DNA of 52,259 nt, the filler included, from Jimgerdemannia flammicorona (lineage: Eukaryota), in assembly GCA_003990765.1 (NCBI GenBank). It is 2 parts of 2 records of this genome, joined end to end, with 100 filler letters (N's around TTAATTAATTAA, not from the genome) between each part and the next. Parts side by side here need not be neighbours in the genome. Positions count along the whole stretch, not along the records: positions 26,181 to 52,259 come from RBNJ01000765.1; 1 more part is not named here. The stretch is one strand, 5' to 3'. The notes beneath the pieces were generated by a model. That model was not told the origin of the DNA and did not search any database. It worked only from the letters and a program-made list of their open reading frames with translations. This document shows, piece after piece, positions 1 through 51,765 of the stretch. A program made the translations under genes and the position numbers. Each line of letters starts with the position of its first letter. Position 1 is the stretch's first letter.

Positions 1-10
1 AAAAAAAAAA

Positions 11-5100: not shown

Positions 5101-8100
5101 GAAAAGCTTTGGGCCATTTGGTTAAATATTTCACAAATACATACTAGGATATGTATACTTATTCCTTCTTAGTATAACTGGTAGAGGTCTAATTACATAT
5201 TGTCTGGTGGTATAATTTTTTGTAATGGTACTTGATAATTCTTCTTTCCTTGGTACTTCTGGCAGATATCACATTTCTTAAGTATGTCTCAGACTTATGT
5301 TCTGAGATTGGGCCAATGTTAGTATATTATTTATAGTTTTTCTTCTATATTTACCTATCTTTGGTGAGTTTTCTAATATTCTTTTTGGATAAGATCTTTT
5401 TGTACTTTGATGGTTAGAGACACTTTCTTTAGAGTATAGTTTCTTAGTATACCCTTCTTCTAGTTCATTAGAGTTAGTGAGAAAGTACAACAATATTATT
5501 GTAAGCTTTCTCTGTTTTATAGATAATAGTTATTTTATAATCCTAAAAAATAAGGATCTAGCAGGCCAAGATTCTGGTAGGTTTTTTGTAGTTGAATAGC
5601 TATTTGAGGGTAGCATGGTCAGTTATTAGAGTAATTTTTTTTCTAATGAGATAATACTTGAATAGAGTAATAGCCTATATAACTATAAGGCATTCTAATT
5701 TGATACTGCCATAGTTTATCTGCTGCTGATTGGTAGCTTGGCTTATATATACATACTATCATATGGTATTGTTAGTCTAGTCCTTCTTGGGCTAGAACTA
5801 CTCCCAGGTCATCTTTGGAGATATCTGTATATAAGATAAATGGCTTTTATAAGTTGGGCCAAATAAGAATTGGTGCTGTGGTTATCTGATGCTTGAGTTC
5901 TTTGAAGGCTAGTTTTTGTAATCCTGTCTATTTATAAGATACTTCTTTCTTGAGAAGGATTTTGATTGGAGTAGTAATTCAGATAAAGTTCTTGATAAAC
6001 CTTCTATTGTAAGACACTAGTATCAAAAATGATAGTATTTCCTTTAGAGTCTTAAGTACTGGCCAATTGTTGATCTTTTTAGTCTTCTTTAGATCTGCAT
6101 GAGTTTCTTCTTTTGAGACTATGAATTCAAGAAATTTGAGTTTCTGTTTTCCAAAGTAGTATTTCTTAGAATTGAGTCTTAGATAATTCTTACAGATAAG
6201 CTTGAAGAATTCTTTGAGGTGGTGTAGGTGTTCTTTAAAATTTGCTGAATAGATATTAGAATCATCTATATATATAATTAAGTAGTAGTAGATCAATAGG
6301 CTATAGACTGAGTTTATCATTCTCTAGAAGGTAGAAGATATATTGTAAAGTCCAAAGAGTATTTGGAGGTACTCAAATAGTTTTTCTAGAGCATGAAAGA
6401 CTATCTTCTGAATGTCTTTGGGATCTATGGAGATCTTATGGAATCCTGTAAAAAGATCTATACTGCTAAAGTATTTGGCATCTTGTAATTGGTTCAAGAG
6501 ATTATTGATTCTAAGCAAAGGATAGATATTCTTTTTAGTGACTGAATTGAGTTTCCTGTAGTCTATATAGAGTCTCTATTCTCCTTTCTTTGGTGCAATA
6601 AGTATAGGGCTGGCCCAAGGGCTAATAGAGAGTCAGATGACTCTATTATCTAAGAGTTCTTGAATATATTCCTTTCAAATATCTTTAGATAATGGGGTAT
6701 TCTATAGGGTTTCTGTCAGATGGGTGTTATATTTTCTATATTTATACTATAGTGATATAATGTGTTGTATAGCAGATTGCTATAATTGATATGAAGATAT
6801 CTCAATATTTGTTAAAGAGTTCTACTAGTTATTACTATTACTGAGATGTTAATTCTTCTCTAATATTAGTGGAAGGCTTTACTATCTCCTGGGTTACAGA
6901 GGGGCCTTTTCTTTTTTCTGAGACCTTTTATCATTTCTTGACAGGTTTAGCCTATAGACTTCTCTGTAGATTTGGTTGAGAAAGAGCATTAGATATCCTA
7001 TAATAGTTCTTTTTGACAAGATGATACTTTCTCAGCTCTGATTGCTCAGGAGTACACTGGATTCATTTTGTCAGAGAATGTATGTCCCTCAATATTCAGG
7101 TTTGGAATATCTTTATTAGAGATTTCTGGAGTCAAGTGGTGCAAATATTTCAAAGGTGGTCTGCTCTCCTGGCTCTAGGATAAGATTCTTATACAATTTG
7201 ACTAACTAGCAATATACTTGCTGGGGGGTATCCTTTTTGAGGTAGTTGACCTAAAGGAGATGTATTTCTTTCTTGTCTAAGCTTCCAAATTCTTCAGTCT
7301 ACCTTGTTTCTTCAGTCAGTCTGGAGACTTCTTATAATTGAGATATCTTAACTTCTATAAAGACTGCTTGGACAATCTTCTATCCTCTGATAATTTGATA
7401 CTATTCTATGCTATTGTTATGTAGAATGATCTTGATTTCACCTATGTATCCTAGGTCTATAATTCCTCTTTCTATAGTTATTCCTTACCTAGCAAGTCCA
7501 GACCTTGAGGTTAGTTGGATATAGGTTTCTTTGAGTGGCTATATGATCAGTCTGGTTCTGAACATCAATATTCTTCCAGGCTTAATGGATTTATCCTCCA
7601 GACTATAGAGGTCATATCCTATATCTTCTTAGTGAGCTTTGGTTGGGGGTTTGACCTTGGAATATAGTAGAATATACTGAGCAATATTCTTACTGAGTTT
7701 AGACTGTTCTTGGGCTGAAGATCTACTAGTAGAGAGCCTCTAAGCTCTGAGGTTAAGATGTGACCACCTGGCTCTAGTAGAAGAATATCAGAGATAATTG
7801 ATTTCTTTCTTTTCTATAAGGTCTAGGGCTTCCATAAAGTTGGTAGCATCTTCTATCTATTCTTTGTAAGTTGTATATCTAATGAGAGCTAGAATATCTT
7901 CTCTCAAATTATAGATTTTAAAAATCCTTCTTCTTGGTTTCTTGGTCTGGCTTTTTCAGATCTACATTTTATTATCTCTTCTCTTTAGAGTGTAGACTGC
8001 AACACCTTGGCTGAGGTGAATCTTCTGGTGCCTACAATCTCAGTAGTCTGGATATCTTCCATGGTTGTAATATCCTATTGCTCAAAAATGCTGTTCTCAG

Positions 8101-26180: not shown

Positions 26181-29100
26181 CTCAAATATATACAGCCAGT
26201 ATCCTGCTAGCCCTACCCATATAGCCAGCACCCATCCTAAAGTAAGTCATTCTCTTCCAACCCCTCTTACCAATCTATCTCACAGATCCTCCTACCAATC
26301 CCTCATACCATCCCCCCTCTGCATAATATCCAATCTCTTCTCAACTGCTATCTAAAAGTTACTGAGCACCTCATACTCCTCTAGCTACACTCTATCAACT
26401 ACTCCCCACCAAAAGCTCTTAAACTGCAGTCTCTGAATTCCATTGAGCCCTACCAAAGAGAGTAGATCTCCTGAGGACCCTTGGGGGGAGGTTCTCATCT
26501 CCCACACCTTCTGCAGCAGAGACACCCAACCCCCTCCTTGCAGTTCAGTCACTCTCTTCAATCACTAGGTTTACAAGTAGTGCAACCTCTTAGGGAAATC
26601 CACAAGGCCAAGACCTCCATGGACCACCAGTGTTGCAAGAGTATCCCAACTGATCTGGGACCTCCTCCTTGCCCAAATCCAATCCCTAGCCACCTTTGTC
26701 AGCCTCTTCACCACCCAAGCTGGGAAGTCCAGGTGGTAGGCTACATACCATAGCTTGGGAAATCAGTATATATTCAGAATTGATACCTGCCCTGCTAGAG
26801 AGATATGATGGCCTCTCTAACCTCGAAGGGCCTCTCCCCAAATAGCCACCCTGCTCTCCCACCACACTCATGGCAAGACAGAGCCATATACAGAGAGGAA
26901 GATGCCCAGATACCATACTACCTCACCAGTAGGGACAATTGTTCCAATAATGTCCCCACCCACCAGTCCATTCTCTAGCACCATAGTCTCACACTTATAC
27001 CAGTTGAGCTTTGCCCCAGAGTGATTCTCATACTATTCCACCATCTCCTTAAGTGCCTCAACATCTGCCACAGACTTAAGGCCAACTACCATATCATCTG
27101 CAAAGGCTCCCACCTTCCACACTATGCTATAGATAGAGAGCCCTACCACCTTCTGGCGAATCCTATCCATCAATGGTTCCAATGAGATGGCATAAAGAAT
27201 AGGTAACAGGGGGTCCTTCTGAGAAACCCCTCTTCTCAAGGTAAATGCCAGACCATAGTGACCATTACACATCAGTGCTGCCTGACTGCCCTCTAGCAGA
27301 CTCAACATAGAAATCTGAAATCCTGGAGGAACACTAATATGATCCAATACCTTGCCCAGCCAGATCCACTGGACCCAGTCATAGGTCTTCTTCTGGTTCA
27401 AGAAGATCAACCTTCTATCCAGGCCACAAGCCCAGGCCCCTTCAATGATACCATGCACTCATGCAGTCTCATCTCTTATAAGTCTGCCTCCAACAAAGCC
27501 CTACTACTCCCCCCCCAGCACCTGTTGGGCAACCTTCTGTAGCCTTGCAACAACCACCTTAGTCACCATCTTTCTGTCTATGTCCAAAAGCATGATCAGT
27601 CACCAGTTCTTCCAGTCTTCTCTCCTCCCCTTGTCTTTGTACAATAAAGTCACCAGCCTGAGGTCCTGCTCTCCAACCCACTCACCACTCTGAAGAACAT
27701 GATCACAGAGAGCAGTCATCTCACCTAAAATGCCAGGGACCTTAACCATCTTCTTCCAGAAGTCCCATGGTAGTTCATCCTCCCCTAGTACTGTTCCAGT
27801 TTTAGTTGCTGCAAGGACACTCTGGACCTCCTCACCTTGCACTGGCAAGGCCAAGTCATCTAGTTCAGCCACTTACAGTGGCCTCCATTCTCCTAATGAA
27901 TCTTCATTAGCACCCCCTTCTTCCTCACTCTACAAACTCTACTATCTCTCTTTCAAAACCCCTAAGATTTATTGTGTGCCATGTACCATATCCCAATTGG
28001 CATCTAGGACTCCATCCCACCAATGTCTCACCCTCCTAGCTTTGAGCAGATGGGATAAATATCTAGTAGGCCACTCACTCTCCTCAAGCCCCTGCCACCT
28101 TAGCCTAGCAGCCATATCTCACATACACACCTCCTCCTCTTCTCTCAATATCTGTTGCAGTTCCATTATCTCCAATTTAATCTGTGCTAACCTCCAATCC
28201 TCCACCCCATCAGAAGTGAGCAAACCTGCCCAATCCATTTGCAATCTCCTCAGCCTGTTGAAAGTATACCTTGTGCACTTCCTCCTCTATCTCCCAGCTT
28301 TTCTCCCAGCTCCTCCCCAATAGACCCTTACAGCCTCTTTCAATCTCATCCAACAGACACCCACTAACAAACCCTCACACCTCCAGTAAGAAACTTTCAC
28401 CTGAATGTCCTCTATCTATGAATCCCACAACCCCTTCTCAGCCAGCAGGGAGGAGTTAAGGCACTAATGTCCAGGTCCATCTCCACTTCCCCCAAATTGC
28501 CCCTGTCTTAATAGTCTCCAGTGATCAGACCATGGGCACCATTCTACCTCCAATACCTTCCAGACATCAGACCCCCAGCATTCTGCTATCAGAATCCAGT
28601 CAATCCTTGTACCTAAGCCATTCATCCAATATGTGTAGACCCTGGAGTTGCCCCATTGTGTTCTGCTCATATCTCCTAAGGAGCTCAGCCACTCCACCTC
28701 CTCACATGCATCCAGGCCTCCACTTCTCCCTCCTGAACTCCTCCCACCATCAGTTCAGTCCAGATGCTGATCCTGAACCATATTAAAGTTCCCCTCAAGC
28801 ACATCAACCCCTTCTGCCAAGAGAATACCCTCCTCCAGCAGCTCCTTAATCTATGCAATCCTCTCACCCCTAACTGTAGGGCAGTAGCAAGAGCCAACCC
28901 TCACTGTCTCCCACTCCGGCTGATGCCAATCTCCCCAGACCAAGTGATCACCCTAGCTCCCAATACCCCCCAAGTCTCCTCTACCCTTCCTCATCAGAAT
29001 CGCTACTTTTTCAAACTAAGCAGTAGCCCTACCCCATTCCCTAGTCCACTCAACCCAATTGTCCTCATCCTCACACCAAACATTCTACAGTAAAAAGAGA

Positions 29101-34848: not shown

Positions 34849-36199
34849 CATCTCTCTCCGGTACAATTCATATTACACAAACTTCAAGCAATAGTTTTAT
34901 ATACAACTTGGAGAAACAAACATGGGCAACATGGGCAACATGGGCAAGACAGGCAAGATGGGCAAGATGGGCAAGATGGCAAGACAGCAAGACAGGTGAT
35001 ATGGGCAAGACAGGCAGATGGCAAGACAGGCGATATGGGCAAAATGGGCAATATGGGCAATATGGGCAAGATGGGCAAGATGGGCAAGATGGGCAATATG
35101 GGCAACACGGGCGGGCAACATGGGCAATATGGGCAACATGGGCAACATAGGCAGGCAAGATGGGCAAGATGGGCAAGACAGGTAAGTGGCAAGATGGGCA
35201 AGATGGGCAAGATGGGCAAGATGGGCAAGATGGGCAAGATGGGCAAGATGGGTAAGACGGGCAAGACAGCAAGATGGCAAGATGGGTGACATGGGCAAGA
35301 TGGGCAGACAGCAAGACAGGAGACATAGGCAAGATGGGCAAAACAGGCAAAATAGGCAAAACAGGCAAAACAGGCAAAACAGGCAACACGAGCAATACAG
35401 ACAATACTGGCAATATGGGTGGGCAACATGGGCAATACAGGCAGGCAATACAGGCAACACGGGCAACATGGGCAGATAATACGGGCAACACAGACAACAC
35501 GGGCAACATGGGCAATATGGGCAACACAGGCAACATGGGCAGGCAAGATGGGCAAGAAGGGCAAGATGGCAAGATGGGCAATATGGGCAAGACAGGTAGA
35601 TGGCAAGACAGGCGACATGGGCAAGATGGGCAAAACAGGCAAAACAGGCAAAATGAGCAACATGGGCAATATGGGCAATACAGGCAACACAGGCAATATA
35701 GGCAACATGGGCAGGTAAGATGGGTAAGATAGGCAAGATGGGCAAGATGGATAATATGGACAATATAGGCAAGACAGGCAAGATAGGCAATACGGGCAAT
35801 ATGGGTGGGCAATATGGGTAACATGGGCAACACAGGCAACATGGGTGAGTAAGACAGGTAAGACAGGCAAGATGAGCAAGACAGCAAGATGACAACATGG
35901 GCAATATGGGCAGGCAAGATGGGCTAGAGGGGCAAGACAGGAGGCACTAATAGGGATAGGTCAGGTGCACTAGATGCCAAGTACTTGAGGTGGTTGGGGC
36001 TCACAACCCATACCCACTAGGTGGGACAGGCTGGGTAGGAGGATCTAGTTACTCAGGCAATGAGGTCGCAACTTATACCCTAAAGGTGCAAGGCTGGGAG
36101 TGGGTTGAGATTGGAGTAGAATAGGACTACTGATGTTGTATGAGAATATGTGGCATGTTATAGATAGTTAATAAATGATTCACACTACAAAAAAAAAAA
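34849..36199 (+). mobile_element. Non-autonomous poly(A) retroposon carrying a 9-bp tandem repeat, with a 16-bp TSD
   Basis: AATAAGCAGGTGGGCA is duplicated at 34833-34848 and 36200-36215. AATAAA at 36170 and A-tail at 36189-36201. Confidence 0.8.
34921..35925. repeat. Degenerate 9-bp minisatellite, consensus ATGGGCAA(G/C/T), about 1 kb
   Basis: Tandem units ATGGGCAAG, ATGGGCAAC and ACAGGCAAA are visible directly. Confidence 0.95.
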
Positions 36200-36937
36200 A
36201 ATAAGCAGGTGGGCATCTTGGTTGGTGTAGGCAAAGGCAAGCTGGTAGAGATAGAGATCTATGGTGACAGATTGATTTAGGGAAGACTAAAAGGAGGGGC
36301 AGGTGATGGTTTGACAGTTGGATTGATTTACCTCCCTGCAGTTGGCAGAGAGTGAAAACAATGGGTTGAGAGAAGGTAGGCATAGGATGGTCAGGAGGTA
36401 GTTGCTTTGGACATTCTGGAGTGGGACTTCAATATGGTGTAGAGGAGGAAGAAGGCCCAGCAGGAGCCAAGAGAGCGAACCCAGAGCCAGTGTCAAAGCG
36501 AACAGAAGATATGTGGGAGAGCGTATATAAGGGGGACGAACAAAGAATGTAACCAAAAATGCATCAGCTGTTTATTGCCACATAAAAACGCGGTCCTTAT
36601 ATACAAAATATGACATCCCAAAAGGAAGGATGTGCCACAACTTGGGCCAAACCAAATTAGGAACCACATGACTGCCGGAGATAGGCAGAGATAAAGGGGG
36701 AGCCAATCCTAGTTGCAGGATAAAAATCACAAATAAACACAAACAAAACAAATACAAATCGAGATTAAAAAACATCCACAGACCCTGGAGGGGTGAGCAC
36801 AAGCGAGGGGTGAGGCCGAAACGGAGCGAGCCACAGCGAGCCTAAGTGAAGCGAGGGGCCGAAGGTAGCAGAGGGGAGCGGAGTGAGGCCAAGACCCCAG
36901 AGTGAGTGTGAGACCCCGGAGGGGGCAAGGATGTTTT

Positions 36938-38992
36938 TTAATCCTCTCTGGCAGAATCAGAGGCACCAGAAGGTGACGAAAACACAAAACGAGAGTGATG
37001 GATTGAAGAGGAAATAGAAGGAAGATGCGAACGAGCAATCAGAGGGCATTGGGAAAGAGATGAAAGTCCATGGCATGAAAGAGAAGAGCACAGGATGGTA
37101 TCAGGGCATTGAGCAACCCAGCAAGCATGATCAAATGGTACGACAAGAATCAGGGGTGGGAAAGAAGAGGGGGTATAGAGAGGGTAAGGGAGGAGAGAGG
37201 GAAGGGAGGGGGGATAAAGAGGAGAGAGTAGGGTAGAGCGAACAACAGACTATTCAACAGAAGCAAGCAGATCATGAATGATAGAAATAGGGTAGGCATG
37301 ACAATGAACCATGAAGTTGCCAAGAACCTGAACAGCAGACACCCAATCAGAACGACAGGAGTAGCATAATGCAAGATGATGAGCCTCACCCCTAATGCAA
37401 TCAAGAAGAGTGTGATGAGGATGATTGGACAAGAAGTCAGGGAACTGTTAGGAATGGGGAAAATGAGAATAAACAACAGTTCAGAAAGAAGAAAGAGAAA
37501 TGGAAAGGTCCAAAAAGGGAATACTAGTCATACTGCACACCCAGGCAATAGAATGATGGGGAGAGTAGACACCCAGGAACACACTAGGGATATCAACACC
37601 AGCAACAGTGAAGACAATAAAGTCATCAATGTATCAGTGAAAGAAGATATCCCCAGCCCGGAACACAATGGAAAGAGGTGAAGTGATATCACATAATACA
37701 TACAATTCGTGGGCCAGGCCAATGAGGTTGGCAAGAGTAGGGGCATAATTCATTTCCATGGCAATATCAGAAGTCTGGTGAAAGGAGCCAAGGGCTGACT
37801 CAAAATAATTAGAGCCACAGACAAAGAGCATAAGCTCAACAATGGAAGCCAATGAAACTGGGGAATCCAAAGGAAAAACAATGGAACCCAAGAAGTGAAG
37901 GCAAGCATTGATCTCATCAAAACGAATAGCAGTATAAAAGGAGGAGAAATCACCAGAGGCCAAGTGGGAAAAATGGTGAACAGGTACAATGGTGGAGCAG
38001 AGAAGGGTGAGCTCCTGAGTATCACGAAGAATGGTATACTCAGGCCCAAGACAGTGTTGTAAGAGAGCCATCCAGGAGAGAAAGAAGTGAGATAATCACT
38101 TCGAAATCTCGGTGGTAGGAGAACTGTAAGCAGCTGTAATAGGATGCCAAGCCAAAGTAGGCTTGTGAACTTTAGAAAGAGCATAGAAAACCAGAAGAGA
38201 AATATCCGGGGAGGACAAAGAGACCTGGAAGAAGTTAAAAATGGGGTTCACGAACAGAGAATCCGAAAGTGATCTAGTATGAGCCAGAGATACCCGAAGA
38301 AGAGTGAGAACCTCATCCAATCCAAGAGCACTAGGCTTGTAAGCCGTGGCTTGAAGGAGGGCAAAAAGGCCATCAAGGTAGAGCAACTTAGGAATAAGTG
38401 CAAAACCCTGATTCTTATCAGTGACTGTGAGCAAATACATAGGCAATTGCTTGACCGATTTAAGCATGGTACACACAGCATGGTCCAAAACCAAGCAAGA
38501 GCAAGCATGTCCAGGAACGGACAATGAGCAAGCCATGTCGAGGAATATGCAGTGTGAAGAGACATTGGGAGAGGGGACCCAATCACTAGGAACAAAATAG
38601 CGAGAGGGCATCTCACCATGATATTGAAAGAAAATGGCAAGGTCAAGAGCATGATGAAAGCATGTGAGACGAGCTGGATCGGTGAAGGAGAATTGTGAGA
38701 GAGTCGCAGAAAAAACAAAGCAAGAACCCAAGGATAAGGCAAAGACTTGAAGGAGAGAAAGGGGGCAGTCAGCCGAAGAAAAAGGAGGAGACAAAAGAGT
38801 TCCAAGAGAAGAATAAACCTGAAAATTCGGGACAAGCAACTGGGAAAGGCAAAGGGGGGACAACATGAGGAACCACTCAGGGCGCACCAGAAGCGATGAC
38901 GGAATCTGAGAAGGGATGGGGATACCGGGGGAGAACCACACTGGGGGGAAGTTTAAGAGCAGGAGGCCTTCTCCTTCTCTCTGACTTTTTTT
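36938..38992 (-). pseudogene. PLE reverse transcriptase, copy 1 (decayed)
   Basis: ORF pieces 38096-39022, 37634-38071 and 37250-37432 carry PLE RT and thumb motifs. Confidence 0.85.
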
Positions 38993-40170
38993 GAAGATGG
39001 CAAGCTCGACAAATGAGAGCACACCCCATCAGAGTGCCAGACCTTGCAGCCACAGGCTTTCGTACAGCCCTTGCATTCAGGGGCATGGGTGGAGGAGGTG
39101 GAGGAGGAACTGGCAGAGGAGGCCAAAGGCAAGCGAGTAGCCGAAGGGGCAGCAGTACGAGGAACACCACCATGAGGACAGATGGACTTGGCCAGGTGCC
39201 AGTAGGCACAGTGGAGGCAACCGGAGCAGACCGCGCAAGGCCAGGCCCCAATGGGGCGAGAACCAAGTTGGTGGCCACACTTGGGGGCAGGGGGAATGGA
39301 GGAGGAAGTCTTGGCAGGGGAGGGGGACCGGGAAGAGGCCGACGAAGCCTGATTGGGCTTGGCAGGGGTCTTGGCAGGGGTCTTGGAGGGGGCCTTAGTG
39401 GTGGCAGCAGTGAAGGAATGAATCTCAGCATGAGCAGCAGCATGAGCTTCAGTATGAATGGCCTCGGAGACCGAAACCTCAGGGGAGGCAGGCAGGGGAG
39501 TAGTGGTGGCAGTGCGAGCAGCGGTGGCAGCACGTGATGTCTCCTGCTCATGGAGGTGAGTAACAAAGGAGGTGCCAGCGAGGAGAAAATGACATACAGC
39601 ATTGATGTCAGTAGCGACAGAAGGAACGTCTTGGATGGCGAAGCCACAGAAGGGGGCAGTATCCAAAAGGTGAGAGGAGGTAAAGGCCACAAAAGCAGTA
39701 CAGGCATATTGGAAGGAGGCGGAAGCAGTGGCAGCGGAAGCAGCAGTGGCATCAGCGGTGGTGAGCTTGGCGGTGGCAGTGGCAGTGCAAACCTCTTTGA
39801 AGAGGGCTTGGCGGTGGGCCTCAGGGAGAACAGAATAGTGGATGGCAGGCAGAGTAATGACATCGACATCATGGCGGAGATGAGCCTCCTTGGCAGAGAG
39901 GGCGAGAACCGACTGAAACTGGGAAAGGAGTGGACAACCAGAGGGACAAAGGTCCAAGGGGAGGGAAAGGATGGCAGACAAGACATAGGTCTCAAACGAG
40001 ATAGTGGTGGGGGTGAAGGCGGGGGGAGGAGGAGGAGGAAGTTCCTCATCCATGAGCTCATCGATGAGGATGGTGGCCCTGAGGGCAGGTGGTACAGCAG
40101 AGGAGGAAGAAGGTCCAGCGGGAGCCAAGGGAGCGAACCCAGAGCCAGTGTCAAAGTAAATGGAAGACAT
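38953..40170 (-). CDS. PLE ORF1 (405 aa; Ala-rich helical region, Pro/Ser linker, two Cys/His clusters)
   Basis: Open in this copy. Homologous frameshifted copies lie at 40856-42071 and 48079-49300. Confidence 0.65.
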   Translation of the reverse strand: MSSIYFDTGSGFAPLAPAGPSSSSAVPPALRATILIDELMDEELPPPPPPAFTPTTISFETYVLSAILSLPLDLCPSGCPLLSQFQSVLALSAKEAHLRHDVDVITLPAIHYSVLPEAHRQALFKEVCTATATAKLTTADATAASAATASASFQYACTAFVAFTSSHLLDTAPFCGFAIQDVPSVATDINAVCHFLLAGTSFVTHLHEQETSRAATAARTATTTPLPASPEVSVSEAIHTEAHAAAHAEIHSFTAATTKAPSKTPAKTPAKPNQASSASSRSPSPAKTSSSIPPAPKCGHQLGSRPIGAWPCAVCSGCLHCAYWHLAKSICPHGGVPRTAAPSATRLPLASSASSSSTSSTHAPECKGCTKACGCKVWHSDGVCSHLSSLPSSKKVREKEKASCS

Positions 40171-40420
40171 GTGGAAGAGTGTGTATAAGGGGGATGAACA
40201 AAGAACGTAACCAAAAATGTATCAGCCATTTATTGCCACGTAAAAACGCGGTCCTTATATACAAAATACGATGTCTCAAAAGGGAGGACACGCCACAACT
40301 TGGGGCAAACCGAATTAGGAACCACATGACCACTAGAGATAGGCAGAGATAAAGGGAGAGCCAATCCCAGTTGCAGGATAAAAATCACAAACAAACACAA
40401 ACAAAACAAATCCAAATTGA

Positions 40421-40601
40421 GATTAAAAAACATCCTTGCCCCCTCCAGGGTCTCATGCTCGCTCCAGGGTCTCAGCCTCACTCTGCTCCCCTCTGCTGCC
40501 TTCAGCCCCTCACTTCGCTCGGGCTTGCTGTGGCTCGCTCTGTTTCGACCTCACCCCTCACTCGCACTCACCTCTCTGGGGTCTGTGGATGTTTTTTAAT
40601 C
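40421..40601. repeat. PLE GC-rich cassette bounded by the 15-bp inverted repeat GATTAAAAAACATCC/GGATGTTTTTTAATC (other copies: 36763-36943, 44080-44260, 47645-47825, 51274-51439)
   Basis: Five copies read directly. Two of them sit exactly at inversion centres. Confidence 0.9.
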
Positions 40602-42032
40602 TCGATTTGGATTTGTTTTGTTTGTATTTGTTTGTGATTTTTATCCTGCAACTGGGATTGGCTCCCCCTTTATCTCCACCTATCTCTGATGGTCATATGG
40701 TTCCTAATTCGGTTCGCCCTGAGTTGTGGCATGTCCTCCCTTTTGGGATATCATATTTTGTATACATATAAGGACTGCGTTTTTACGTGGCAATAAACAA
40801 CTGATGCATTTTCGGTTACATTCTTTGTTCATCTCCCTTATATATGCTCTTCCACATATCTTCCATTTGCTTTGACACTGGCTCTGGGTTTACTCCCTTG
40901 GCTCCCGCTGGGCCTTCTTCCTCCTCTGCTGTACCACCTGCCCTCGGGGCCACCATCCTCGTCGATGAGCTCATGGATGAGAAACTTCCTCCTCCTCCTC
41001 CCCTGCCTTCACCCCCACCACTGTCTCATTCAAGACCTATGTCTTGTCTGCCATCCTTTCCCTCTCCTTGGACCTTCATCCCTCTGGTTGTCCGCTCCTT
41101 TTCCAGTTTCAGTTGGTTCTTGCCCTCTCCACCAAGGAGGCTCATCTCCGCCATGATGTCAACATCATCACTCCACCCGCCATCCACTATTCCATTCTCC
41201 CTGAGGTCTGCTACCAAGCCCTCTCCAAAGAGGTTTGCGCCGCCACTGCCACCACTAAGCTCGCCACCACTGATGCCACCACTGCTTTCACTGCCACCAC
41301 TTCCACCTCCTTCCAACATACCTGTGCCACTTTTGTGGCCTTCACCTCCTCTTGCCTTTCAGATGCTGCCCCCTTCTGTGGCTTCGCCATCCAAGACGTT
41401 TCTTCTGTCACTGCCGACATTGACGCTGTACATCGTTTTCTCCTCACTGGCACCTCCTTCATTGCTCGCCTCCATGAGCAGGAGACGTCATATGCTGCTG
41501 CTGCTGCTTGCACTGCTGCCACTACTCCCCTGCCTACCTCCCCCGAGGTTTTGGTCTCTGAGGCCATTCATGCTGAAGCTCATGCTGCTGCTCATGCTGA
41601 GGTTCGTTCCTTCGCTGCTGCCGCTGCCAAGACCCCCTCCAAGACCCCCGCCAAGACCCCCACCAAGCCCAATCAGGCTTCGTTGGCCTCTTTCCAGTCC
41701 CCCTCCCCCACCAAGGCTTCCTCCTCCATTCCCCCTGCCCCCAAGCATGGCCGCCAACTTAGTTCTTGCTCTGTCGGGGCCTGGCCTTGCACAGTCTGCT
41801 CCAGTTGCCTCCACCATGCCTACTGGCACCCGGCCAAGTCCGTCTGTCCTTATGGTAGTGTTCCTCATGCTGCTGCCCCTTCAGCTGCTCGCTCACCTTT
41901 GGCCTCCTCCGGCAGTTCTTCCTCCGCCTCCTCCACCTATGCCCCTGAATGCAAGGGCTGCATGAAAGCCTGTGGCCACAAGGTCTGGCACTCTGACAGG
42001 GTGTGCTCTCATTCGTCGAGCTCGCTACCTTC

Positions 42033-44085
42033 AAAAAAGTCAGAGGGAAGGGGAAGACCTCCCGCTCTTAAACTTCCCCCTGGCATGGTTCTCCCCTAGT
42101 ATCCCTGTCCCTTCTCGGATTCCATTGTCACTTCTGGTGTACCCTGAGTAGTTCCTCATGTTGTCCCCCCTTCACCTTTCCCAGTTGCTTATCCTGAATT
42201 TTTGGGTTTATTCTTCTCTTGGAACTCTTTTGTCTCCTCCTTTTTCTTCGGCTGACTGCCCCCTTTCTCCCCTTCAAGTCTTTACCTTATCCTTGGGTCC
42301 TCACTTTGTTTTTCCTGCAACTCCCTCACAATTCTCCTTCACCGATCCGGCTCGTCTCACATGCTTTCGTCATGCTCTTGACCTTGCCATTTTCTTTCAA
42401 GATCATGGTGAGATGCCCTCTCACTATTTTGTTTCTAGCAATTGGGTCCCCCCTCCCAATGTCTCTTCACACTGCATATTCCTCGACATGGCTTGCTTGT
42501 TGTCCATTCCTGGATGCACTCACTCTTGCTTGGTTTCGGACCATACCATGCATACCACGCTTAAATCAGTCAAGCAATTGCCTATGCATTTGCTCACAGT
42601 CACTGATAAGAATCAGAGTTTTGCACTTATTCCTAAGTCACTCTACCTTGATGGCCTTTCTGCCCTCCTTCAAGCCATGGCTTACGAGCCTAGTGCTCTT
42701 GGATTGGATGAGGTTCTCACTCTTCTTTGGGTATCTCTGGCTTATGCTAGATTGCTTTCGGATTCCCCATTCATGAACTCCATTTTTAACTTCTTCCAGG
42801 ACTCTTTGTCCTCCCCAGATATTTCTCTTCCAGTTTTCTATGCTCTTCCTAAAGTTCACAAGCCTACTTTGGCTTGGCATCCTATTATGGCTGCTTATAG
42901 TTCTCCTACCACCAAGATTTCGAAGTGGTTATCCCACTTCTTTCTCTCCTGGATGGCTCTCTTACAACACTGTCTTGGGCCTGAGTATACTATTCTTCAT
43001 GATACTCAGAAGCTCACCCTTCTCTGCTCTACCATTGTGTCTGTTCACCGTTTTTCCCACTTAACCTCTGGTGATTTCTCCTCCTTTTATACTGCTATTC
43101 ATTTTGATGAGATTGATGCTTGCCTTCACTTCTTGGGTTCCATTGTTTTTCCTTTGGATTCCCCGGTTTCATTGGCTTCTATTGTTGAGCTTATGCTCCT
43201 CGTCTGTGGCTCTAATTATTTTGAGTCGGCCCTTGGCTCCTTTCACCAGACTTCTGGTATTGCCATGGGAATGAATTGTGCCCCCACCCTTGCCAACCTC
43301 ATTGGCCTGGCTCATGAATTGTATGCATTACGTGATATCACTTCACCTCTTTCCATTGTGTTCTGGGCTGGGGATATCTTCTTTTGCTGATACATTGATG
43401 ACTTTATTGTCTTCGCTGTTGCTGGTATTGATATCTCTAGTGTGTTCCTGAGCATCTACCCTCCCCACCATTCTATTACCTGGGTGTGCAGTATGACTAG
43501 TATTCCCTTTTTGGACCTTTCCATTTCTCTTTCTCCTTTCCGAACTGTTGTTTATTCTCATTTTCCCCATTCCCAACAGTTCCCTGACTTCTTGTCCAAT
43601 CATCCTTGTCACACTCTTCTTGATTGCATTAGGGGTGAGGCTCATCATCTTGCATTATGCTGCTCCTGTCATTCTGATTGGGTGTCTGCTGTTCGGGTTC
43701 TTGGCAACTTCATGGTCCATTGTCATGTCTACCCTATTTCTATCATTCATGATCTGCTTGCTTCTGTTAAATGGTCTGTTGTTTGTCCTACCCTACTCTC
43801 TCCTCTTTATCCCCCCTTCCTTCCCTCTCTCCCCCCTTACCCTCTCCATTCCCCTCTTCTTTCCCACCCCTAATTCTTGTCATACCATTTGATCATGCTC
43901 GCTGGGTCACTCAATGCCCTGATACCATCCTGCACTCTTCTCTTTCATGCCATGGACTTTCATCTCTTTCCTGACGCCCTCTGATTGCTCATTCACATCT
44001 TTCTTCTATTTCCTCTTCAATCCATCGCTCTCATTTTGTGTTTTTGTCACCTTCTGGTGCCTCTGGTTCTGCCAGAGAGGATTAA
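42033..44085 (+). pseudogene. PLE reverse transcriptase, copy 2 (decayed), no GIY-YIG domain
   Basis: ORFs 42158-43390, 43442-43873 and 43771-43974. The reconstructed C-terminus ..PLIARSHLPSISSSI..SARED* ends at the TAA inside the cassette inverted repeat. Confidence 0.85.
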
Positions 44086-47000
44086 AAAACATCCTTGCCC
44101 CCTCTGGGGTCTCGCACTCACTCCGGGGTCTCGGCCTCACTCCGCTCCCCTCTGCTGCCTTCAGCCCCTTGCTTCACTTGGGCTCGCTGCAGCTTGCTCT
44201 GTTTCGGCCTCACCCCTCACTCACGCTCACCCCTCCGGGGTCTGCAGATGTTTTTTAATCTCGATTTAGATTTGTTTTGTTTGTGTTTGTTTGTGATTTT
44301 TATCCTGCAACTGGGATTGGCTCCCCCTTTATCTCTGCCTATCTCTGGCAGTCATGTGGTTCCTAATTCAGTTCACCCTGAGTTGTAGTGCATCCTCCCT
44401 TTTGGGATGTCGTATTTTGTATATAAGGACTGCATTTTTACATGGCAATAAATGGCTGATGCATTTTCAGTTATGTTCTTTGTTCATCCCCCTTATACAT
44501 GCTCTTCCACATGTCTTCCGTTCGCTTTGACACTGACTCTGGGTTCACTCCCTTGGCTCCCGCTGGGCCTTCTTCCTCCTCAACTTTCTCATTGGCTTTA
44601 GGTGGAGCAGGACAGGGGTTTGGTGGATGGCATTTGTCAATGACAAGGGGATAAGCTAGGACCTTTTACTCAATGGCATCTGGTGGGAACAGCCTTGGTT
44701 GGGACACAAATAGATTGAGTACTAGTGGTAGAGTGCTGGGGCAATATACTGGATACTGCTGAGGTATGCTGGTGCTCTTGGTCTGATCACTGGAGAGTAG
44801 AGGTTTACAGTCAATTCCAAGCAGTAGATAGTGGCAGAGGGTGCTGGCACCTCAATATAGCCTTACTCAGGAGGAAGAAGGAGAGGGACCAATTTATGAC
44901 AGTTATGAGTCAGGAAGTAAGGTGATGACAGAATGAAGGGCAGTTGATTACAGGATGGTGGGACAAATTCAAACATCTGGCTGGTGCTTACTGGCATGAT
45001 GTTAGAGAAGTGGCTGGGAAGGAGCAGAAGGACAAGGAAAGGAGAGTAGAGAAGGGGCTGAGATGGCAATTGAAGCTTTTGGAAGAGGGGAACTTATCTG
45101 GAGAGGTCTGCCACTGATTGGTACTGGAGGTGGCAGAGCTGCAGGCGGATTTAAGAGTATCTGAGAGCAGGGTGATAGATGGCCTACTGGCCAGACTGTG
45201 AGCTAGATGGTTGGAAGAAGGAGAGAGACTGACAAAATATCTGTCTGGTGTTTTGAAGGCCAGAAGAGTATGGTATAGTTGGGCCTCAGTATTGCATGAA
45301 GATGGAGTTGAGGTCTTTGGCATTGCTGACATGCTAGAGGAGGTATCCAGTCAATGGCAAGCTCTTTGGTAGAATGATGGGAAGCATGCTGAGGTTACCA
45401 GGCCTGAAGAGGATGACAACAATATAGTGACCAATTGGCCAGTAACCAGGATATCTGAGATAGGGGAGGCAGTCATGGGGAGGTTTCTCTAGATGAAGTA
45501 TTGGAGGTACTGAGAAAGACACAGACTGGTTCATCTCCTGGGGAGGATGGACTGCTCTGGGAATTCTGGAAGGAGTTTAAGACAGAGTTTGGTAGCTGGT
45601 TGTTGGAGATGGCTAATGCTATTCTGAAGGAGGATAGTTGGATTGGCAATGGTTTCTTGGGGCTAGTTTCTCTTCTATATAAAGAAAAGGGAGATTGACA
45701 AATATGGCATAATTGGCAACCTATCATGCTGCTGAATGTGGATAGAAAACTAGTATCAAAGATTCTAGCAGGGAGGTTGCAACAGTATGTTGGTGCACTT
45801 GTTGGAGAGGAGCAGTGAGGCTTTGTCAAGAGAAGGCAGATCAGGGATAGTACTGCTTGGGTGCTGAATATCTTAGAGGGCTGTAGGAGCTGGCAGATAG
45901 ATGGCCAGATGGTCTTTCTAGATCAAGAGAAAACCTATGACAGGGTGCAGTGGAGTTACTTGGAGGCTGTTCTGAGGAGGGCAGGGTTTGGTGTCAGAGA
46001 GGCAGGGTGATTGATGGGCTTGATATGGGAATGCTGAGCAGCAGTAATGATGAATGGATGGTATGGACCAGAGTTTATGTTAGGGCATGGAGTATCACAG
46101 GGGGACCCTCTCTCCTTCCTTCTTTATGTACTTTCTCTGGAGCCTTTGCTGGTATGGTTGAAGGAGCAGCTTTCTGGACAGCAGATGGGAGATGTAGTCT
46201 GGCAGTTGGGTGCTTTTGCAGATGACATGATGGTATGGTTGAGGAGTCAGGAGGATGTCAAAGTCCTACAGGAAGGGGTTGGACAGTATGAGAGGCTGGC
46301 AGGGGCAAAGTTGAATTGGAGCAAGTGTGAGACAATGGAACTTGGTGCTGGCCTGGGGGGACATGGACAATTTGGACATTTGATAGCCACAGGGAGTACT
46401 GTTCTATATCTGGGTATCTGGTTCTCAGTGTATGAGACAGTCCTGTCAAGAGAGTAGTGATGTGGATTGATTCAGAAGCTGAAAGGTACACTGACAGGTT
46501 GGTCAGGAAGGAACTTCTCCTTGGCAGGCAGAATAGTAGTTTTGAATGTGTATTGGCTGCCCAAACTGTGGTACCTTAGTTATCATCTGGATTTTCCAGG
46601 ATGGGTGGTGCAGTGGCTGAAGAAGATTATAGAAGGATGGTTATAGTGTGGGAGACATCCACAGATTGGGTAGGAAACTCTGGTGATGAGGATTTCTGAT
46701 TGGGGCATAAGGCTGGTGGACTTCAGATGCCAGCTAAAGGTACTTAGGGGTTGGTGGGGGTGCCGAATGCTTGAACTTGGTGAGGAAGGGTGGGGCAGAC
46801 TGGCCATGGACAATTGGGAGATCTGGTTCTGCCCATGAGGTGAGGTTTGGAAGGATATATGGGGCTTACTTTAGGTTGGAAGTATAGGAAGACTGCAGTT
46901 TAAGGGGTTCTGGTAGGGTATTGTAGAGGCCTGGCTGGCCATAGAGTTGGCAGGCCCAGAGATAGAGGTGAGTGAGAACTCTGAGCTGAGATGGTAGCAA

Positions 47001-47319
47001 CTGGAAGACCTTTGCATTGATGGCCACAGTTTGAAGGAGTACTCTCTGGTTGAGGCAATGGAGTAGATCAGGTCAGGCCCTCTGGAGAGATGGCCATCTG
47101 GTTGGCAGAGAGTTGGTATTGGTGAAGACTGGGAGTGGATTCGAATCTAGAATTGGGGAGCCTCAGTATACAAGATGGTGCCGCCCAAGTACTGGGTGGT
47201 TTGGTGGTAGTTCTTAAGATGAAATATGATACTGAGCTATCAGACAGGCTGAATGGAGATAGATGGCTGTTGGGATGATGAATGGTGCAATGAGGTGGAT
47301 GGAGGGGTTGTTCAGACAC

Positions 47320-50300
47320 CAGAGGAGGAAGAAGGCCCAGCGGGAGCCAAGGGAGCGAATCCAGAGCCAGTGTCAAAGCGAATGGAAGACATGTGGAAGA
47401 GCATATATAAGGGGGACAAATAAAAAATGTAACCAAAAATGCATCAGCCATTTATTACTACATAAAAACATGGTCCTTATATATAAAATATGACATCCCA
47501 AAAGGGGGGGACGCACCACAACTCGGGGCAAACCGAATTAGGAACCACATGACCACTAGAGATAGGCGGAGATAAAGGGGGAGCCAATCCCAGTTGCAGG
47601 ATAAAAATCACAAATAAACACAAACAAAAACAAATCTAAATCGAGATTAAAAAACATCCTTGCCCCCTCCGGGGTCTCGCACTCGCTCTGGGGTCTTGGC
47701 CTTACTCTGCTCCCCTCCGCTGCCTTCAGCCCCTCGCTTCACTCGGGCTCACTGCAGCTTGCTCTGTTTCGGCCTCACCCCTCGCTCATGCTCACCCCTC
47801 CAGGGTCTGCGAATATTTTTTAATCTCGATTTGGATTTGTTTTTGTTTGTGTTTGTTTGTGATTTTTATCCTGCAACTGAGATTGGCTCCCCCTTTATCT
47901 CCACCTATCTCCGGTGGTCATGTGGTTCCTAATTCGGTTCACCCCAAGTTGTGGTGCATCCCCCCCCTTTTGGGACATCATATTTTATATATAAGGACTG
48001 CATTTTTATGTGGCAATAAATGGCTGATGTATTTTCGGTTACATTCTTTATTCATCTCCCTTATATACACTCTTCTACATATCTTCTGTTCACTTTGATA
48101 CCGGCTCTGGGTTCGCTCCCTTGGCTCCCGCTGGGCCTTCTTTCTCCTCTGCTGTACCACCTGCACTCGGGGCCTCTGTCCTTGTCAATGAGCTCATGGA
48201 TGAGGTACTTCCTCCTCCCCCTCTCCCTGCCTTCACCCCCACCACTGTCTCATTCGAGACCTACATCTTGTCTGCCATCCTTTCCCTCCCCTTGGACCTT
48301 TGTCCCTCTGGTTGTCCGCTCCTCTCTCAGTTCTGGTTGGTTCTTGCCCTCTCTGCCAAGGAGGCTCGGCTCGTCTCTGCTGTGATGTTGACATCATCAC
48401 TCCGCCTGCCATCTGCTACTCCATTCTCCCTGAGGCCTGCCACCAAGCCCTCTCTGAAGAGGTTTGTGCTGCTACTGCCACTGCCAAGCTCACTGCCGCT
48501 GATGCTGCTGCTGCTTCCATCACCACCGCTTCTGCCTCCTTTCACCATACCTGTGCTGCCTTCGTGGCCTTCGCCTCCTCTGACTTTTTGGATGCTGCTC
48601 TCTTTTGTGGCTTCGCCATCCAAGACGTTCCTTCTGTCACTACCAACATTGATGCTATATGTCATTTTCTCCTCACCGGCACCTCTTTGTTGCTCACCTT
48701 CATGAGCAGGAGATGTCACGTACTGCCGCCACTGCTCGCACTGCTGCCACTGCTTCCCTGCCTACCTCCCCCAAGGTTTCAGTCTCTGAGGCCATTCATG
48801 CTGAAGCTCATGCTGCTGCTTGTGCTGAGGTTTGTTCCTTCACTGCTGCCACCACCAAGGCCCCCTCCAAGACCCCCATCAAGACCCCCACCAAGCCCAA
48901 TCAGGCTTCATCAGCCTCTTCCCAGTCCCCCTCCCCTGCCAAGGCTTCCTCCTCCATTCCCCCTGCCCTCAAATGTGGCCATCAACTTGGATCTTACCCC
49001 GTTGGGGCCTGGTCTTGTGCTGTCTGCTCCGGTCACCTCCACCATGCTTACTGGCACCCGGCCAAGTCCGTCTGTCCTCATGGTGGTGTTCCTCACACTG
49101 CTGCCCCTTCGGCTACTCACTCACCTTCGGCCTCCTCCACCAGTTCCTCCTCTACCTCCTCCACCCATATCCCTGAATGTAAGGGCTGCACGAAAGCCTG
49201 TGGCCACAAGGTCTAGCACTCTGATGGGGTGTGCTCCTATTCGTCGGGCTTGCCACCTTCAAAAAAAGTCAGAGGGAAGGGGAAGGCCTCCCACTCTTAA
49301 ACTTCCCCTTGACATGGTTCTCCCCTGGTGTCCCCATCCTTTCTCGGATTCCGTCATCACTTCTGGTGTGCCCTGAGTGGTTCCTCATGTTGTTCCCCCT
49401 TCACCTTTCCCAGTTGCTTGTCCCGAACTTTCGGGTTTACTCTTCTCTTGGAACTCTTTTGTCTCCTCCTTTTTCTTCAGCTGACTGCCCCCTTTCTCCC
49501 CTTCAAGTCTTTGCCTTATTCTTGGGTCCTCACTTTGTTTTTCCTGCGACTCCCTCACAATTCTCCTTCACTGATCTGGCTCATCTCACACATTTTCATT
49601 GTGCTCTTGATCTTGCCATTTTCTTTCAAGATCGTGGTGAGATGCCCTCTTGCTGTTTTGTTCCTAGCAATTGGGTCTCCCCTCCCAATATCTCTTCATA
49701 CTGCATATTCCTTGACATGGCCTGCTTGCTGTCTGTTCCTGGATGCGCTTGCTCTTGCTTGGTTTCGGACCATGCTGTATATACCATGCTTAAATTGGTC
49801 AAGCAATTGCCTATGCATTTGCTCACAGTCACTGATAAGAATCAGAGTTTTGCACTTATTTCTAAGTTGCTCTACCTTGATGGCCTTTCTGCCCTCCTTT
49901 GAGCTACAGCTTATGAGCCTAGTGCTCTTGGATTGGATGAGATTCTCACTCTTCTTCGGGTTTCTCTGGCTCGTACCAGATCACTTTTGGACTCTCCTTT
50001 TGTGAACCCTATTTTTAACTTCTTCCAGGACTCTTTGTCCTCTCTGGATATTTCTCTTCTGATTTTCTATGCTCTTCCTAAAGTTCACAAGCCTACTTTG
50101 GCTTGGCATCCCATTATGGCTGCTTATAGTTCTCCTACCACCAAGATTTCGAAGTGGTTATCTCACTTCTTTCTCTTCTGGATGACTCTCTTACAACACC
50201 ACCTTGGGCCTGAGTATACTATTCTTCATGATACTCAGGAGCTCACCCTTCTCTGCTCCACCATTGTGCCTATTCATTGTTTTTCCCATTTGGCCTCTGG

Positions 50301-51765
50301 TGACTTTTCCTCCTTTTATACTGCTATTCATTTTGATGAGATCAATGATTGCCTTTGTTTCTTAGGTTCCTTGGTTTTTCCTTTAGATTCCCCAGTTTCG
50401 TTGGCTTCCATTATTGAGCTTACACTCCTCATCTGCAGCTCTAATTATTTTGAGTTGGCCCTTGGCTCTTTTCACCAGACTTCTGGTATTACCATGGGAA
50501 CAAATTGTGCCCCCACCCTTACCAACCTTGTTGGCCTGGCCCATGAACTGCGTACATTACATGATATTACTTCACCTCTTTCCATTGCATTCTGGGCTGG
50601 GGATATCTTCTTCTGCCATTATATTGATGACTTTATTGTCTTTGCTGTTGCTGGTATTGATATCCCTAGTGTGTTTCTGGGCATCTACCCTCTCCACCAT
50701 TCTATTATCTGGGTGTGTGGTATGACTAGTATTTCCTTTTTGGACCTTTCCATTTCTCTTTCTCCTTTCTGAACTATTGTTTATTCTCATTTTCTCTGTT
50801 TCCAACAGTTCCCTGACTTCTTGTCCAATCATCCTCATCGCACTCTTCTTGAATATATTTGGAGTGAGGCTCGTCATCTTGCATTATGCTGCTCCCATCA
50901 TTCTGATTGGGTGTCTGCTGTTTGGGTTCTTGGCAACTTCATGGTCTATCATCATGCCTACCCTATTTCTATTGTTCACTCTTCCCTACTCTCTCCTCTT
51001 TATTCCCCCTCTCTTCTCTCTCTCCCCCCTTACCCTCTCCATACCCCCTCTTCTTTCCCACCCCTGATTCTTGTCATACTATTCAATCGTGCTCACTGGG
51101 TTGCTCAACACCCTGATACTGTCCTGCACTCTTCTCTTTCATGGCATGGACTTTCATCTCTTTCCTGATGCCCTCTGATTGCTCGTTCGCATCTTCCTTC
51201 TATTTCTTCTTCAATCCATTGCTCTCATTTTGCATTTTCATCACCTTCTGGTGCCTCCAGCTCTGCCAGAGAGGATTAAAAAACATCCTTGCCCCCTCCG
51301 GGGTCTCGCGCTCACTCCGGGGTCTTGGCCTTACTCCACTCCCCTCTGCTGCCTTTGGCCCCTCACTGTGGCTTGCTCCATTTTGGCCTCACTCCTTGCT
51401 CATGCTCACCCCTCCAGGGTCTGCAGATGTTTTTTAATCTAGATTTGGATTTGTTTTTGTTTGTGTTTGTTTGTGATTTTTATCCTGCAACTGGGATTGG
51501 CTCCCCCTTTATCTCTGCCTATCTCCGGCAGTCATGTAGTTCCTAATTCGGTTCGCCCTGAGTTGTGGTGTATCCCCCCCCTTTTGGGACATCATATTTT
51601 GTATATAAGGACCGCGTTTTTACATGGCAATAAACAGCTGATGCATTTTTGGTTATGTTCTTTGTTTGTCCCCCTTATACACACTCTTCCACATGTCTTC
51701 TATTCACTTTGACACTAGCTCTGGGTTTGCTCCCTTGGCTCCTGCTGGGTCTTCTTCCTCCTCTG
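47320..51765 (+). mobile_element. Second PLE insertion: inverted pLTR arm 47320-47644, cassette 47645-47825, ORF1 (48079-49300), RT (49261-51279), 3' pLTR to 51765
   Basis: Same family as 36441-44581. ORF 49933-50772 contains PKVHKP, GITMG and HYIDD. The termini are inverted repeats of about 330 bp. Confidence 0.9.

Follow-up and report, generated by a model that had tools for sequence, protein, structure and literature searches.

The window analysed here is a 52,259-nt stretch of Jimgerdemannia flammicorona DNA. At positions 40421-40601 it contains a sequence that opens with the 15 bases GATTAAAAAACATCC and closes with their exact reverse complement. The initial annotation took this sequence for a cassette resembling a viral inverted terminal repeat (ITR), in which a 15-bp closing stem and GNA-triloop mini-hairpins on the cDNA strand would form a structured single-stranded DNA terminus or primer rather than an RNA element. 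Two questions follow: to which element does the cassette belong, and does its symmetry serve the copying of that element?

Organization of the element and its affinity to Penelope-like elements

Repeat analysis and end sequences define an element unit of ∼3.66 kb, whose parts follow each other in sense order as an ORF body (O), the cassette (C) and a repeat of ∼321-322 nt (P) with the 3' end ...CTTCTTCCTCCTC (Table 1). C and P together form a direct terminal repeat of ∼503 nt, or pseudo-LTR (pLTR), that flanks O on both sides. Upstream of the pseudo-LTR lies an inverted whole element in the first insertion and an inverted P in the second. The flanks of the two insertions in the window differ, the insertions being independent, and no long target duplications are detectable in the window around either of them. 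All copies are interstitial, with 3' termini in ...CTTCTTCCTCCTC and with unique sequence or other repeats as flanks, and the cassette holds an internal position in the unit (ORF-cassette-P), not a genome terminus.

Table 1. Coordinates of element parts in the window and of hammerhead-like cores in related metagenome loci (primes mark inverted copies)
Feature	Coordinates	Strand	Remarks
P'	36442-36762	inverted	
C'	36763-36943	- (inverted)	3' of the ORF of the left (minus-strand) element; intact CCCC-GGA-GGGG at 36914-36924; TAA at 36938-36940 (-)
O'	36944-40099	-	ORF body
P'	40100-40420	-	boundaries +/-3; TATA-like box and long-frame start; ends ...CTTCTTCCTCCTC
C	40421-40601	+	first head-to-head junction
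Left arm of C	40421-40435	+	GATTAAAAAACATCC; adjoins the inverted repeat P'
Core of C	40436-40586	+	151 nt; C-rich imperfect palindrome, ladder of G/C stems; loop of the large head-to-head palindrome
Right arm of C	40587-40601	+	exact reverse complement of the left arm
P	40602-40922	+	sense
O	40923-44079	+	ORF body of the right element
C	44080-44260	+	3' of the ORF of the right element; GAT TAA at 44080-44085
P	44261-44581	+	sense
Unrelated DNA	44585-47320		between the two insertions; holds a LINE-like RT fragment
P'	47322-47644	inverted	
C	47645-47825	+	second head-to-head junction (P'-cassette-P)
P	47826-48147	+	sense
O	48148-51273	+	third ORF body
C	51274-51439	+	3' of the ORF of the third element; 15-nt internal deletion
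P	51440-51763	+	sense; end approximate
P copies scored for the start codon	near 36560, 40230, 40795, 44450, 47440, 48020, 51635		
Hammerhead-like core, L002	2166-2205		∼80 nt past the RT stop
Hammerhead-like core, L004	2401-2440		∼80 nt past the RT stop
Hammerhead-like core, L008	2386-2425		∼80 nt past the RT stop
Hammerhead-like core, L006	47-75		

A reverse transcriptase (RT) core with the motifs TDKN, LPKVHK..HPI, GDFSSFY, GIAMG and YIDD lies on the plus strand at 42152-43873 and is interrupted by one in-frame stop (43388-43390). An exhaustive protein search returned 1289 relatives with E-values of 1e-3 or lower, 84 among them reaching 1e-10 or lower, whereas a word-indexed protein search gave no match. 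The closest protein (P0001), from a short contig, shares 46-50% identity. Names are attached to three of the ten top clusters looked up, including two from fungi, Racocetra fulgida and Puccinia sorghi. Pfam detected RVT_1 in 18 of 25 scanned homologues and GIY-YIG in none of the 25, nor in the frames of the window; the consensus of these homologues contains DKNLG, LPKxHK..RPIV, GIAMGT and RYIDDIF. A profile search against the PDB was no help for placement, as it retrieved generic RTs only (group II intron, retron and DRT) and no telomerase at E-values up to 0.01.

Passages of a published account of Penelope-like elements (PLEs) name as their hallmarks the DK(G) motif, with the variants DKA and DK, and an architecture of a pLTR plus an inverted copy (PMC8557442). 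Both were found here: the RT carries PLE-type motifs including the N-terminal DK motif, and pseudo-LTRs with an adjacent inverted P or whole element occur in both insertions. The missing GIY-YIG endonuclease does not exclude membership, because endonuclease-less (EN-less) PLE clades exist. Judged by its sequence, the element is a decayed, endonuclease-less PLE of the fungus. With the canonical PLE insertion, as the same passages present it, our element shares direct pLTRs around one ORF, an upstream inverted 5'-truncated copy and outward 3' ends; it differs in that it has no GIY-YIG, that no 30-40-bp tail was noticed and that no hammerhead motif was found (PMC8557442). The EN-deficient Athena and Coprina elements likewise have no endonuclease domain, the named homologues in our case being fungal; in contrast to what these passages say of them, the copies described here are interstitial, end in CTTCTTCCTCCTC without reverse-complement telomere repeats and have no hammerhead core (PMC8557442).

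The hammerhead motif, CUGANGA...GAAA with helix II, is absent from both strands of 36441-51765, and the sense strand of the five pLTR regions contains neither a CUGANGA-like nor a GAAAY word. Rfam reported nothing at gathering or E-value thresholds for the window or for 17 relatives; these blanks carry no weight, because a control on the hammerhead-like core of a related metagenome locus (L002) was also blank, even at E-values up to 10 in a 321-nt search.

The frame at 36938-37249 on the minus strand ends in ...ARED followed by TAA, with GAT TAA inside the left arm of the cassette, and its alignment to the closest intact homologue reaches residue 405 of 406 at the C-terminus. The RT stop codon had been described as part of the left repeat, and this is true at the three junctions of O with C (the 36763-36943 copy, 44080 and 51274). 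At 40421 the left neighbour is the inverted repeat P', not an ORF.

The sense strand is poor in purines, which make up ∼32% of the whole element (36441-51765), 28% of the cassette core and 22.5% of third codon positions of the RT (7.5% A); 14 related ORFs have 43-53%. Low purine content leaves all three sense frames open for long stretches, so that ORF length is no evidence of coding here. The apparent start of the long frame, ATGGCT, reads ATGG in four of the seven P copies, ACAG in two and ACAA in one. This pattern fits an ancestral ACGG, and the ATG in P may thus be a product of CpG decay.

Cassette copies, inversion junctions and folding of the core

When up to two mismatches are allowed, the 15-base arm is found 10 times in the window, where 0.22 would be expected by chance, and none of 100 shuffles reaches 10. 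All 10 belong to element-linked cassettes, into which they pair up: five in total, 166-181 nt long (four of 181 nt and one of 166 nt), each bounded by the 15-base inverted repeat, which bears out the closing stem claimed in the initial annotation. The left arm is exact in all five and the right arm in two, the other three having 1, 2 and 1 mismatches. Identity among the five copies is 91%, and almost all positions at which they differ show CG in one copy and TG or CA in another. Over the three copies of the whole element the decay is strand-symmetric (257 TG, 272 CA), and the 653 singleton differences comprise 632 transitions and 21 transversions. Because the differences are of the CpG type and almost purely transitions, we regard the element copies as old, methylation-decayed repeats.

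The cassette is present at every inversion junction seen: in both insertions the head-to-head copies join as P'-cassette-P. The large palindromes (arms 40258-40435 and 40587-40764 with 151 nt between them in the first insertion; 47497-47657 and 47813-47973 with 155 nt between them in the second) enter the cassette by exactly the 15-base arms, which are their innermost part, and then stop. The palindrome of the first insertion spans whole elements of ∼4 kb and that of the second covers only P, the outward ends being the 3' terminus of the element in both. The upstream pseudo-LTR, a partial tandem copy, begins in both insertions at the first base of the left arm, and the core is sense-oriented relative to the full-length right-hand element. 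Small shares of element sequence occur in three soil-metagenome runs; no RNA run is among the sequencing runs listed as sharing sequence. A 226-nt soil contig (X3 record 13) switches strand at the arm, matching the right arm and 17 nt of P on both strands with ∼144 nt between the matches. Its sequence identifies this contig as a third such junction, from another sample; the switch was seen in this one soil-metagenome record among the records listed, whose contigs are short. The junction rule rests on the two junctions in the window and this short contig.

Between the arms, the 151-nt core is itself an imperfect palindrome. In a global alignment with its own reverse complement, the CpG-restored core has a z-score of 4.35, reached by none of 500 dinucleotide shuffles, and the five real copies score 3.5, 0.75, 4.05, 3.5 and 2.3 (four of the five between 2.3 and 4.1); by this comparison the cassette at 40421-40601 is the most decayed copy. 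When the copies are folded as an alignment, each strand forms one unbranched hairpin, with 53 pairs and -64.8 kcal/mol for the antisense strand and 52 pairs and -50.9 kcal/mol for the sense strand. The stems are short G/C blocks, the spacers between them being pyrimidine on both arms of the sense strand, and GA, GAG, GGA or GAA facing each other on the antisense strand. No covariation was found among the five copies, only 2 of the 52-53 pairs changing on both sides; it is not to be expected, because CpG decay is the only variation among copies. The G blocks paired across the core have been kept despite the low-purine pressure, which argues for a constraint on pairing. That pairs survive better on the antisense strand in the alignment folds has no explanation in a mutation bias and is given no weight here. 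A G-quadruplex on the antisense strand was considered by reading the sequence and rejected, the G runs lying 13-45 nt apart, too far for the canonical motif.

Whole cassettes exceed shuffles in stability on both strands, with z-scores of -3.2 to -7.8 as RNA and -1.3 to -4.1 as DNA, and the DNA significance is due entirely to the 15-bp stem. Under DNA parameters none of the 10 strand/copy folds of the core is stabler than shuffles (z -1.3 to +1.1), and neither is the CpG-restored core (z +1.0 sense, +0.45 antisense). With RNA parameters the antisense core reaches z -4.4 when restored, and -3.5, -1.4, -3.6, -5.5 and 0.0 in the real copies, whereas the sense core gives -0.8 when restored and +1.2 to -2.3 in the real copies; this antisense bias is due to the purine-purine internal loops. 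A strand bias is therefore visible with RNA energies but not with the DNA parameter set and its treatment of tandem G-A mismatches. These results support a description of the cassette as a strand-asymmetric long imperfect hairpin.

GCGAAGC-type mini-hairpins have a C-GNA-G loop. Among those claimed on the antisense strand, CCCC-GGA-GGGG is literally present in the minus-strand cassette (Table 1), while GCC-GAA-GGC and GC-GAA-GC appear after CpG restoration only, the heptamer GCGAAGC occurring in none of the five real copies. The real copies contain 1, 0, 1, 1 and 1 antisense GNA hairpins with a stem of at least 3, and the copy at 40421-40601 has none. The restored antisense core has three, against 0.29 +/- 0.54 in dinucleotide shuffles (1 of 200 reaches 3), or four against 1.05 with a stem of at least 2 (2 of 200 shuffles). 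GNA loops occupy three of its five triloop hairpins, with a binomial p of 0.007 if GNA trinucleotides have their overall frequency of 0.094. Counted irrespective of loop sequence, triloop hairpins show no enrichment in the restored core (5 versus 3.04; 35 of 200 shuffles reach 5), and by manual count 7 of the 12 three-base unpaired ladder segments in the restored-core structure are GNA. The enrichment arises because the ladder spacers consist of G and A only, so that any local hairpin tends to have a GNA loop, and we read the GNA triloops as a consequence of spacer composition, not as working parts. The two strongest GNA hairpins are one repeated motif, whose halves pair long-range in the ladder. 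The local hairpins are a possible alternative conformation, appearing in the predicted minimum-energy fold of the sense DNA.

Parvoviruses carry terminal hairpins and replicate by a rolling-hairpin mechanism. Like these hairpins, the cassette is an imperfect palindrome of high GC content, and by folding back it could prime synthesis and generate head-to-head dimers; it differs from them in that it is not terminal, is unbranched in the alignment folds, comes with no Rep or nicking site and has a retroelement cDNA as its template. A Pfam search, which is a partial test, revealed no Rep-like ORF in the window frames. We consider it very unlikely that extra-stable GNA-triloop DNA mini-hairpins build a branched, parvovirus-ITR-like single-stranded terminus. 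The GNA enrichment of the restored antisense core, relative to both shuffles and trinucleotide frequency, speaks for such a structure, as do the two CCCC-GGA-GGGG hairpins that flank the core like the small arms of an ITR and the presence of CCCC...GGGG hairpins in the sense-strand DNA minimum-energy fold. These points are outweighed by the ordinary number of triloop hairpins of any loop, by the long-range pairing of the halves of the two strongest hairpins, by the frequency of GNA in the ladder segments anyway, by DNA folds no better than those of shuffles, by extant copies having no or one such hairpin, and by the cassette lying away from a genome end with no Rep-like protein. The branched fold and the mini-hairpins as working parts are thus not supported.

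Proposed role in cDNA synthesis and its alternatives

We propose, with a probability of about 0.5, that the cassette forms a palindrome at the 5' end of an EN-less PLE's pseudo-LTR and acts on the minus-strand cDNA as a turn-around or annealing point. A priming role on the cDNA strand, already part of the initial annotation, is the best reading because the cassette sits exactly where minus-strand cDNA would need to turn or anneal for head-to-head copies to form; the accompanying idea of a terminus falls away with the internal position of the cassette. Reverse transcription through P and the cassette would leave the new cDNA with a 3' end that is a copy of the left arm. This copy would be complementary to the right-arm copy 151 nt behind it, as well as to the corresponding site of a second cDNA whose priming took place at the opposite side of the break. 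The 15 bases would anneal, assisted by the G/C ladder of the core, and DNA synthesis would then proceed on cDNA rather than RNA, yielding a second strand and an inverted P or inverted whole element with the core as the unpaired centre. Annealing and extension on cDNA would produce exactly the arrangement P'-arm-core-arm-P. Fold-back with copying of the entire cDNA would give the full 4-kb-arm palindrome of the first insertion, and a short partner or blocked extension would give the second insertion. We infer that annealing of the arms causes the inversion.

Several observations count against this mechanism. Simple fold-back leaves unexplained why copying halted exactly where P ends in the second insertion and at the cDNA's own 5' end in the first, so that it needs extra assumptions, or two-ended priming in its place. 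Two-ended priming accounts more easily than fold-back for the exact halt where P ends, and we keep both routes. In addition, the core under DNA parameters is no stabler than shuffles and shows no covariation, and at the stop codon none of 18 related loci has an inverted repeat of 12 nt or longer. It is also conceivable, albeit unlikely, that the cassette is a true hairpin origin, at which self-priming would complete the cDNA into a hairpin-capped duplex; copying or resolution of this duplex would generate full-length head-to-head dimers in a rolling-hairpin-like step of the retrotransposon's life cycle, the G/C stems with their tandem G-A mismatches tuning the fold specifically for the minus strand.

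Three further explanations were weighed. An RNA element, which we consider doubtful, would be a 3'-UTR hairpin of the sense transcript that recruits or positions the RT, or a strong stop that provokes template switching, the inversion being a by-product. As sense RNA the whole cassette indeed beats shuffles (z -3.4 to -5.5) and holds the stop codon within its stem. Relatives, moreover, carry an RNA structure in a similar position, 4 of the 27 loci having a hammerhead-like core ∼80 nt past the stop, and 8 of 15 have a noncoding inverted repeat, with a loop of 54-158 nt, that no more than 4 of 40 shuffles equal. However, the sense core is no stabler than shuffles with RNA parameters, restored or real, and its internal loops are pyrimidine-pyrimidine mismatches. 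Since both junctions hold a complete cassette, the RT must have passed the hairpin, with no stop before it.

The palindrome might instead be a functionless scar, the relic of an earlier fold-back or hairpin-opening event copied into the master element, with inverted repeats merely favouring template switching or recombination. The absence of covariation and the ordinary DNA stability of the core agree with this explanation, and the pLTR 5'-end palindromes vary in length (15-38 bp) between Penelope families, as by-products would, to go by the part of PMC3846280 that describes them. We regard a scar as improbable: the mismatches are pyrimidine on both sense arms, and decay from a perfect palindrome would need ∼20 transversions, whereas only 21 of the 653 singletons are of this kind; furthermore, G has been kept almost only in stems, although the strand otherwise has 28% purine. 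The cassette could also be a small transposon of the foldback or MITE-like type, unrelated to the element, that landed in the 3' UTR of the master copy. This would account for 15-bp terminal inverted repeats, a length of 181 nt and a structured interior, yet the flanks (...GAG and TCG...) show no target-site duplication, every arm match in the window is linked to the element, and the left arm provides the last codon and stop of the ORF. Such a transposon is therefore extremely unlikely.

Under the annealing model the element can be compared with known sources of inverted copies. In LINE-1 twin priming and hairpin-primed second-strand synthesis, inverted segments result from priming by a second 3' end or by that of the cDNA itself; here a built-in 15-base complementarity would fix the junction, in place of chance microhomology. 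Closer parallels are found among the Penelope elements of Adineta vaga. The relevant passages of Arkhipova et al. (2013; PMC3846280) describe palindromes of 18 bp and 38 bp at the 5' end of pLTRs, an inverted pLTR that has a 15-bp overlap with the direct pLTR (Pen2a_Av) and palindromes at inverted junctions; the authors took the palindromes as signs of self-priming and called for experiments on it. Pen2_Av, Pen2a_Av and Pen3a_Av share with our element a palindrome located both at the pLTR 5' end and where the pLTR meets a neighbouring inverted one, the latter in both insertions here, and A. vaga Penelope also shares a pLTR that contains a TATA box and the first codons (PMC3846280). Compared with the palindromes of 18-38 bp given in those passages, the present one has 15-bp arms and a 151-nt core (181 nt in total) and overlaps the stop codon; the host is a fungus, the endonuclease is missing, and the inverted partner is once a whole element (PMC3846280). 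The hairpin mechanism considered here is essentially the self-priming idea set out in that paper (PMC3846280), and the cassette represents a known PLE feature in larger form, in a family that is fungal and has neither endonuclease nor hammerhead.

The route by which PLEs acquire pseudo-LTRs and inverted copies is still unsettled. The present family offers a large, well-defined and directly testable cis element, with 15-bp arms, a 151-nt ladder core and a fixed junction, and has no endonuclease or hammerhead to complicate tests. For annotation, the cassette accounts for long palindromes centred on a C-rich 151-nt loop in assemblies of this fungus.

Related metagenome loci and surroundings of the insertions

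One metagenome scan yielded 27 related loci (L001-L027) with 24-29% identity. At least 15 of them either overlap exactly at their termini, by 60-233 nt, or contain three units in tandem (L022/L023, period 3196); these relatives are thus present as tandem arrays or circles of 3.0-3.6 kb. A head-to-head element junction occurs in none of the 27 loci; L024 has a large inverted repeat located away from the RT. None of the 18 loci with post-ORF sequence has an inverted repeat of at least 12 nt that starts within 40 nt of the stop, and L014 has an 11+11 perfect palindrome 30 nt past the stop. The best noncoding inverted repeat was evaluated in 15 loci, L018 being omitted as a near-duplicate of L017, and has arms of 10-15 nt and loops of 54-158 nt. 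It is matched by at most 4 of 40 shuffles in L010, L012, L017, L023, L026, L024, L016 and L003, and by 6 to 40 of 40 in the other seven. To judge from these sequences, a stem-closed module in the noncoding part may be common in the group, though not at the stop codon.

The hammerhead-like cores of L002, L004, L006 and L008 are minimal and have the form GGG-CUGAAGA-helix II-GAAACGUU-CCC, with a second CUGAUGA word upstream (Table 1). Telomere-like repeats of the CCCTAA type directly follow the ORF of L021 (2585-2996) and form short tracts in L010 (92-103 and 2774-2785), matching the pattern described for telomere-associated EN-less PLEs.

The window also contains other repeats. The LINE-like RT fragment between the two PLE insertions (46038-46457; RVT_1, E-value 5e-10) shows a distant resemblance, confined to short pieces of 68-85%, to a minus-strand element at ∼26700-28550, and the region of the latter (26.7-28.5 kb) has a strongly negative GC skew. 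An array of 9-nt tandem repeats of the TGGGCAAGA / TGGGCAACA type occupies 34968-35874, ∼570 nt to the left of the first insertion. Positions 1-8000 are AT-rich, with 27-34% G+C compared with 44-53% in the repeat-rich right half.
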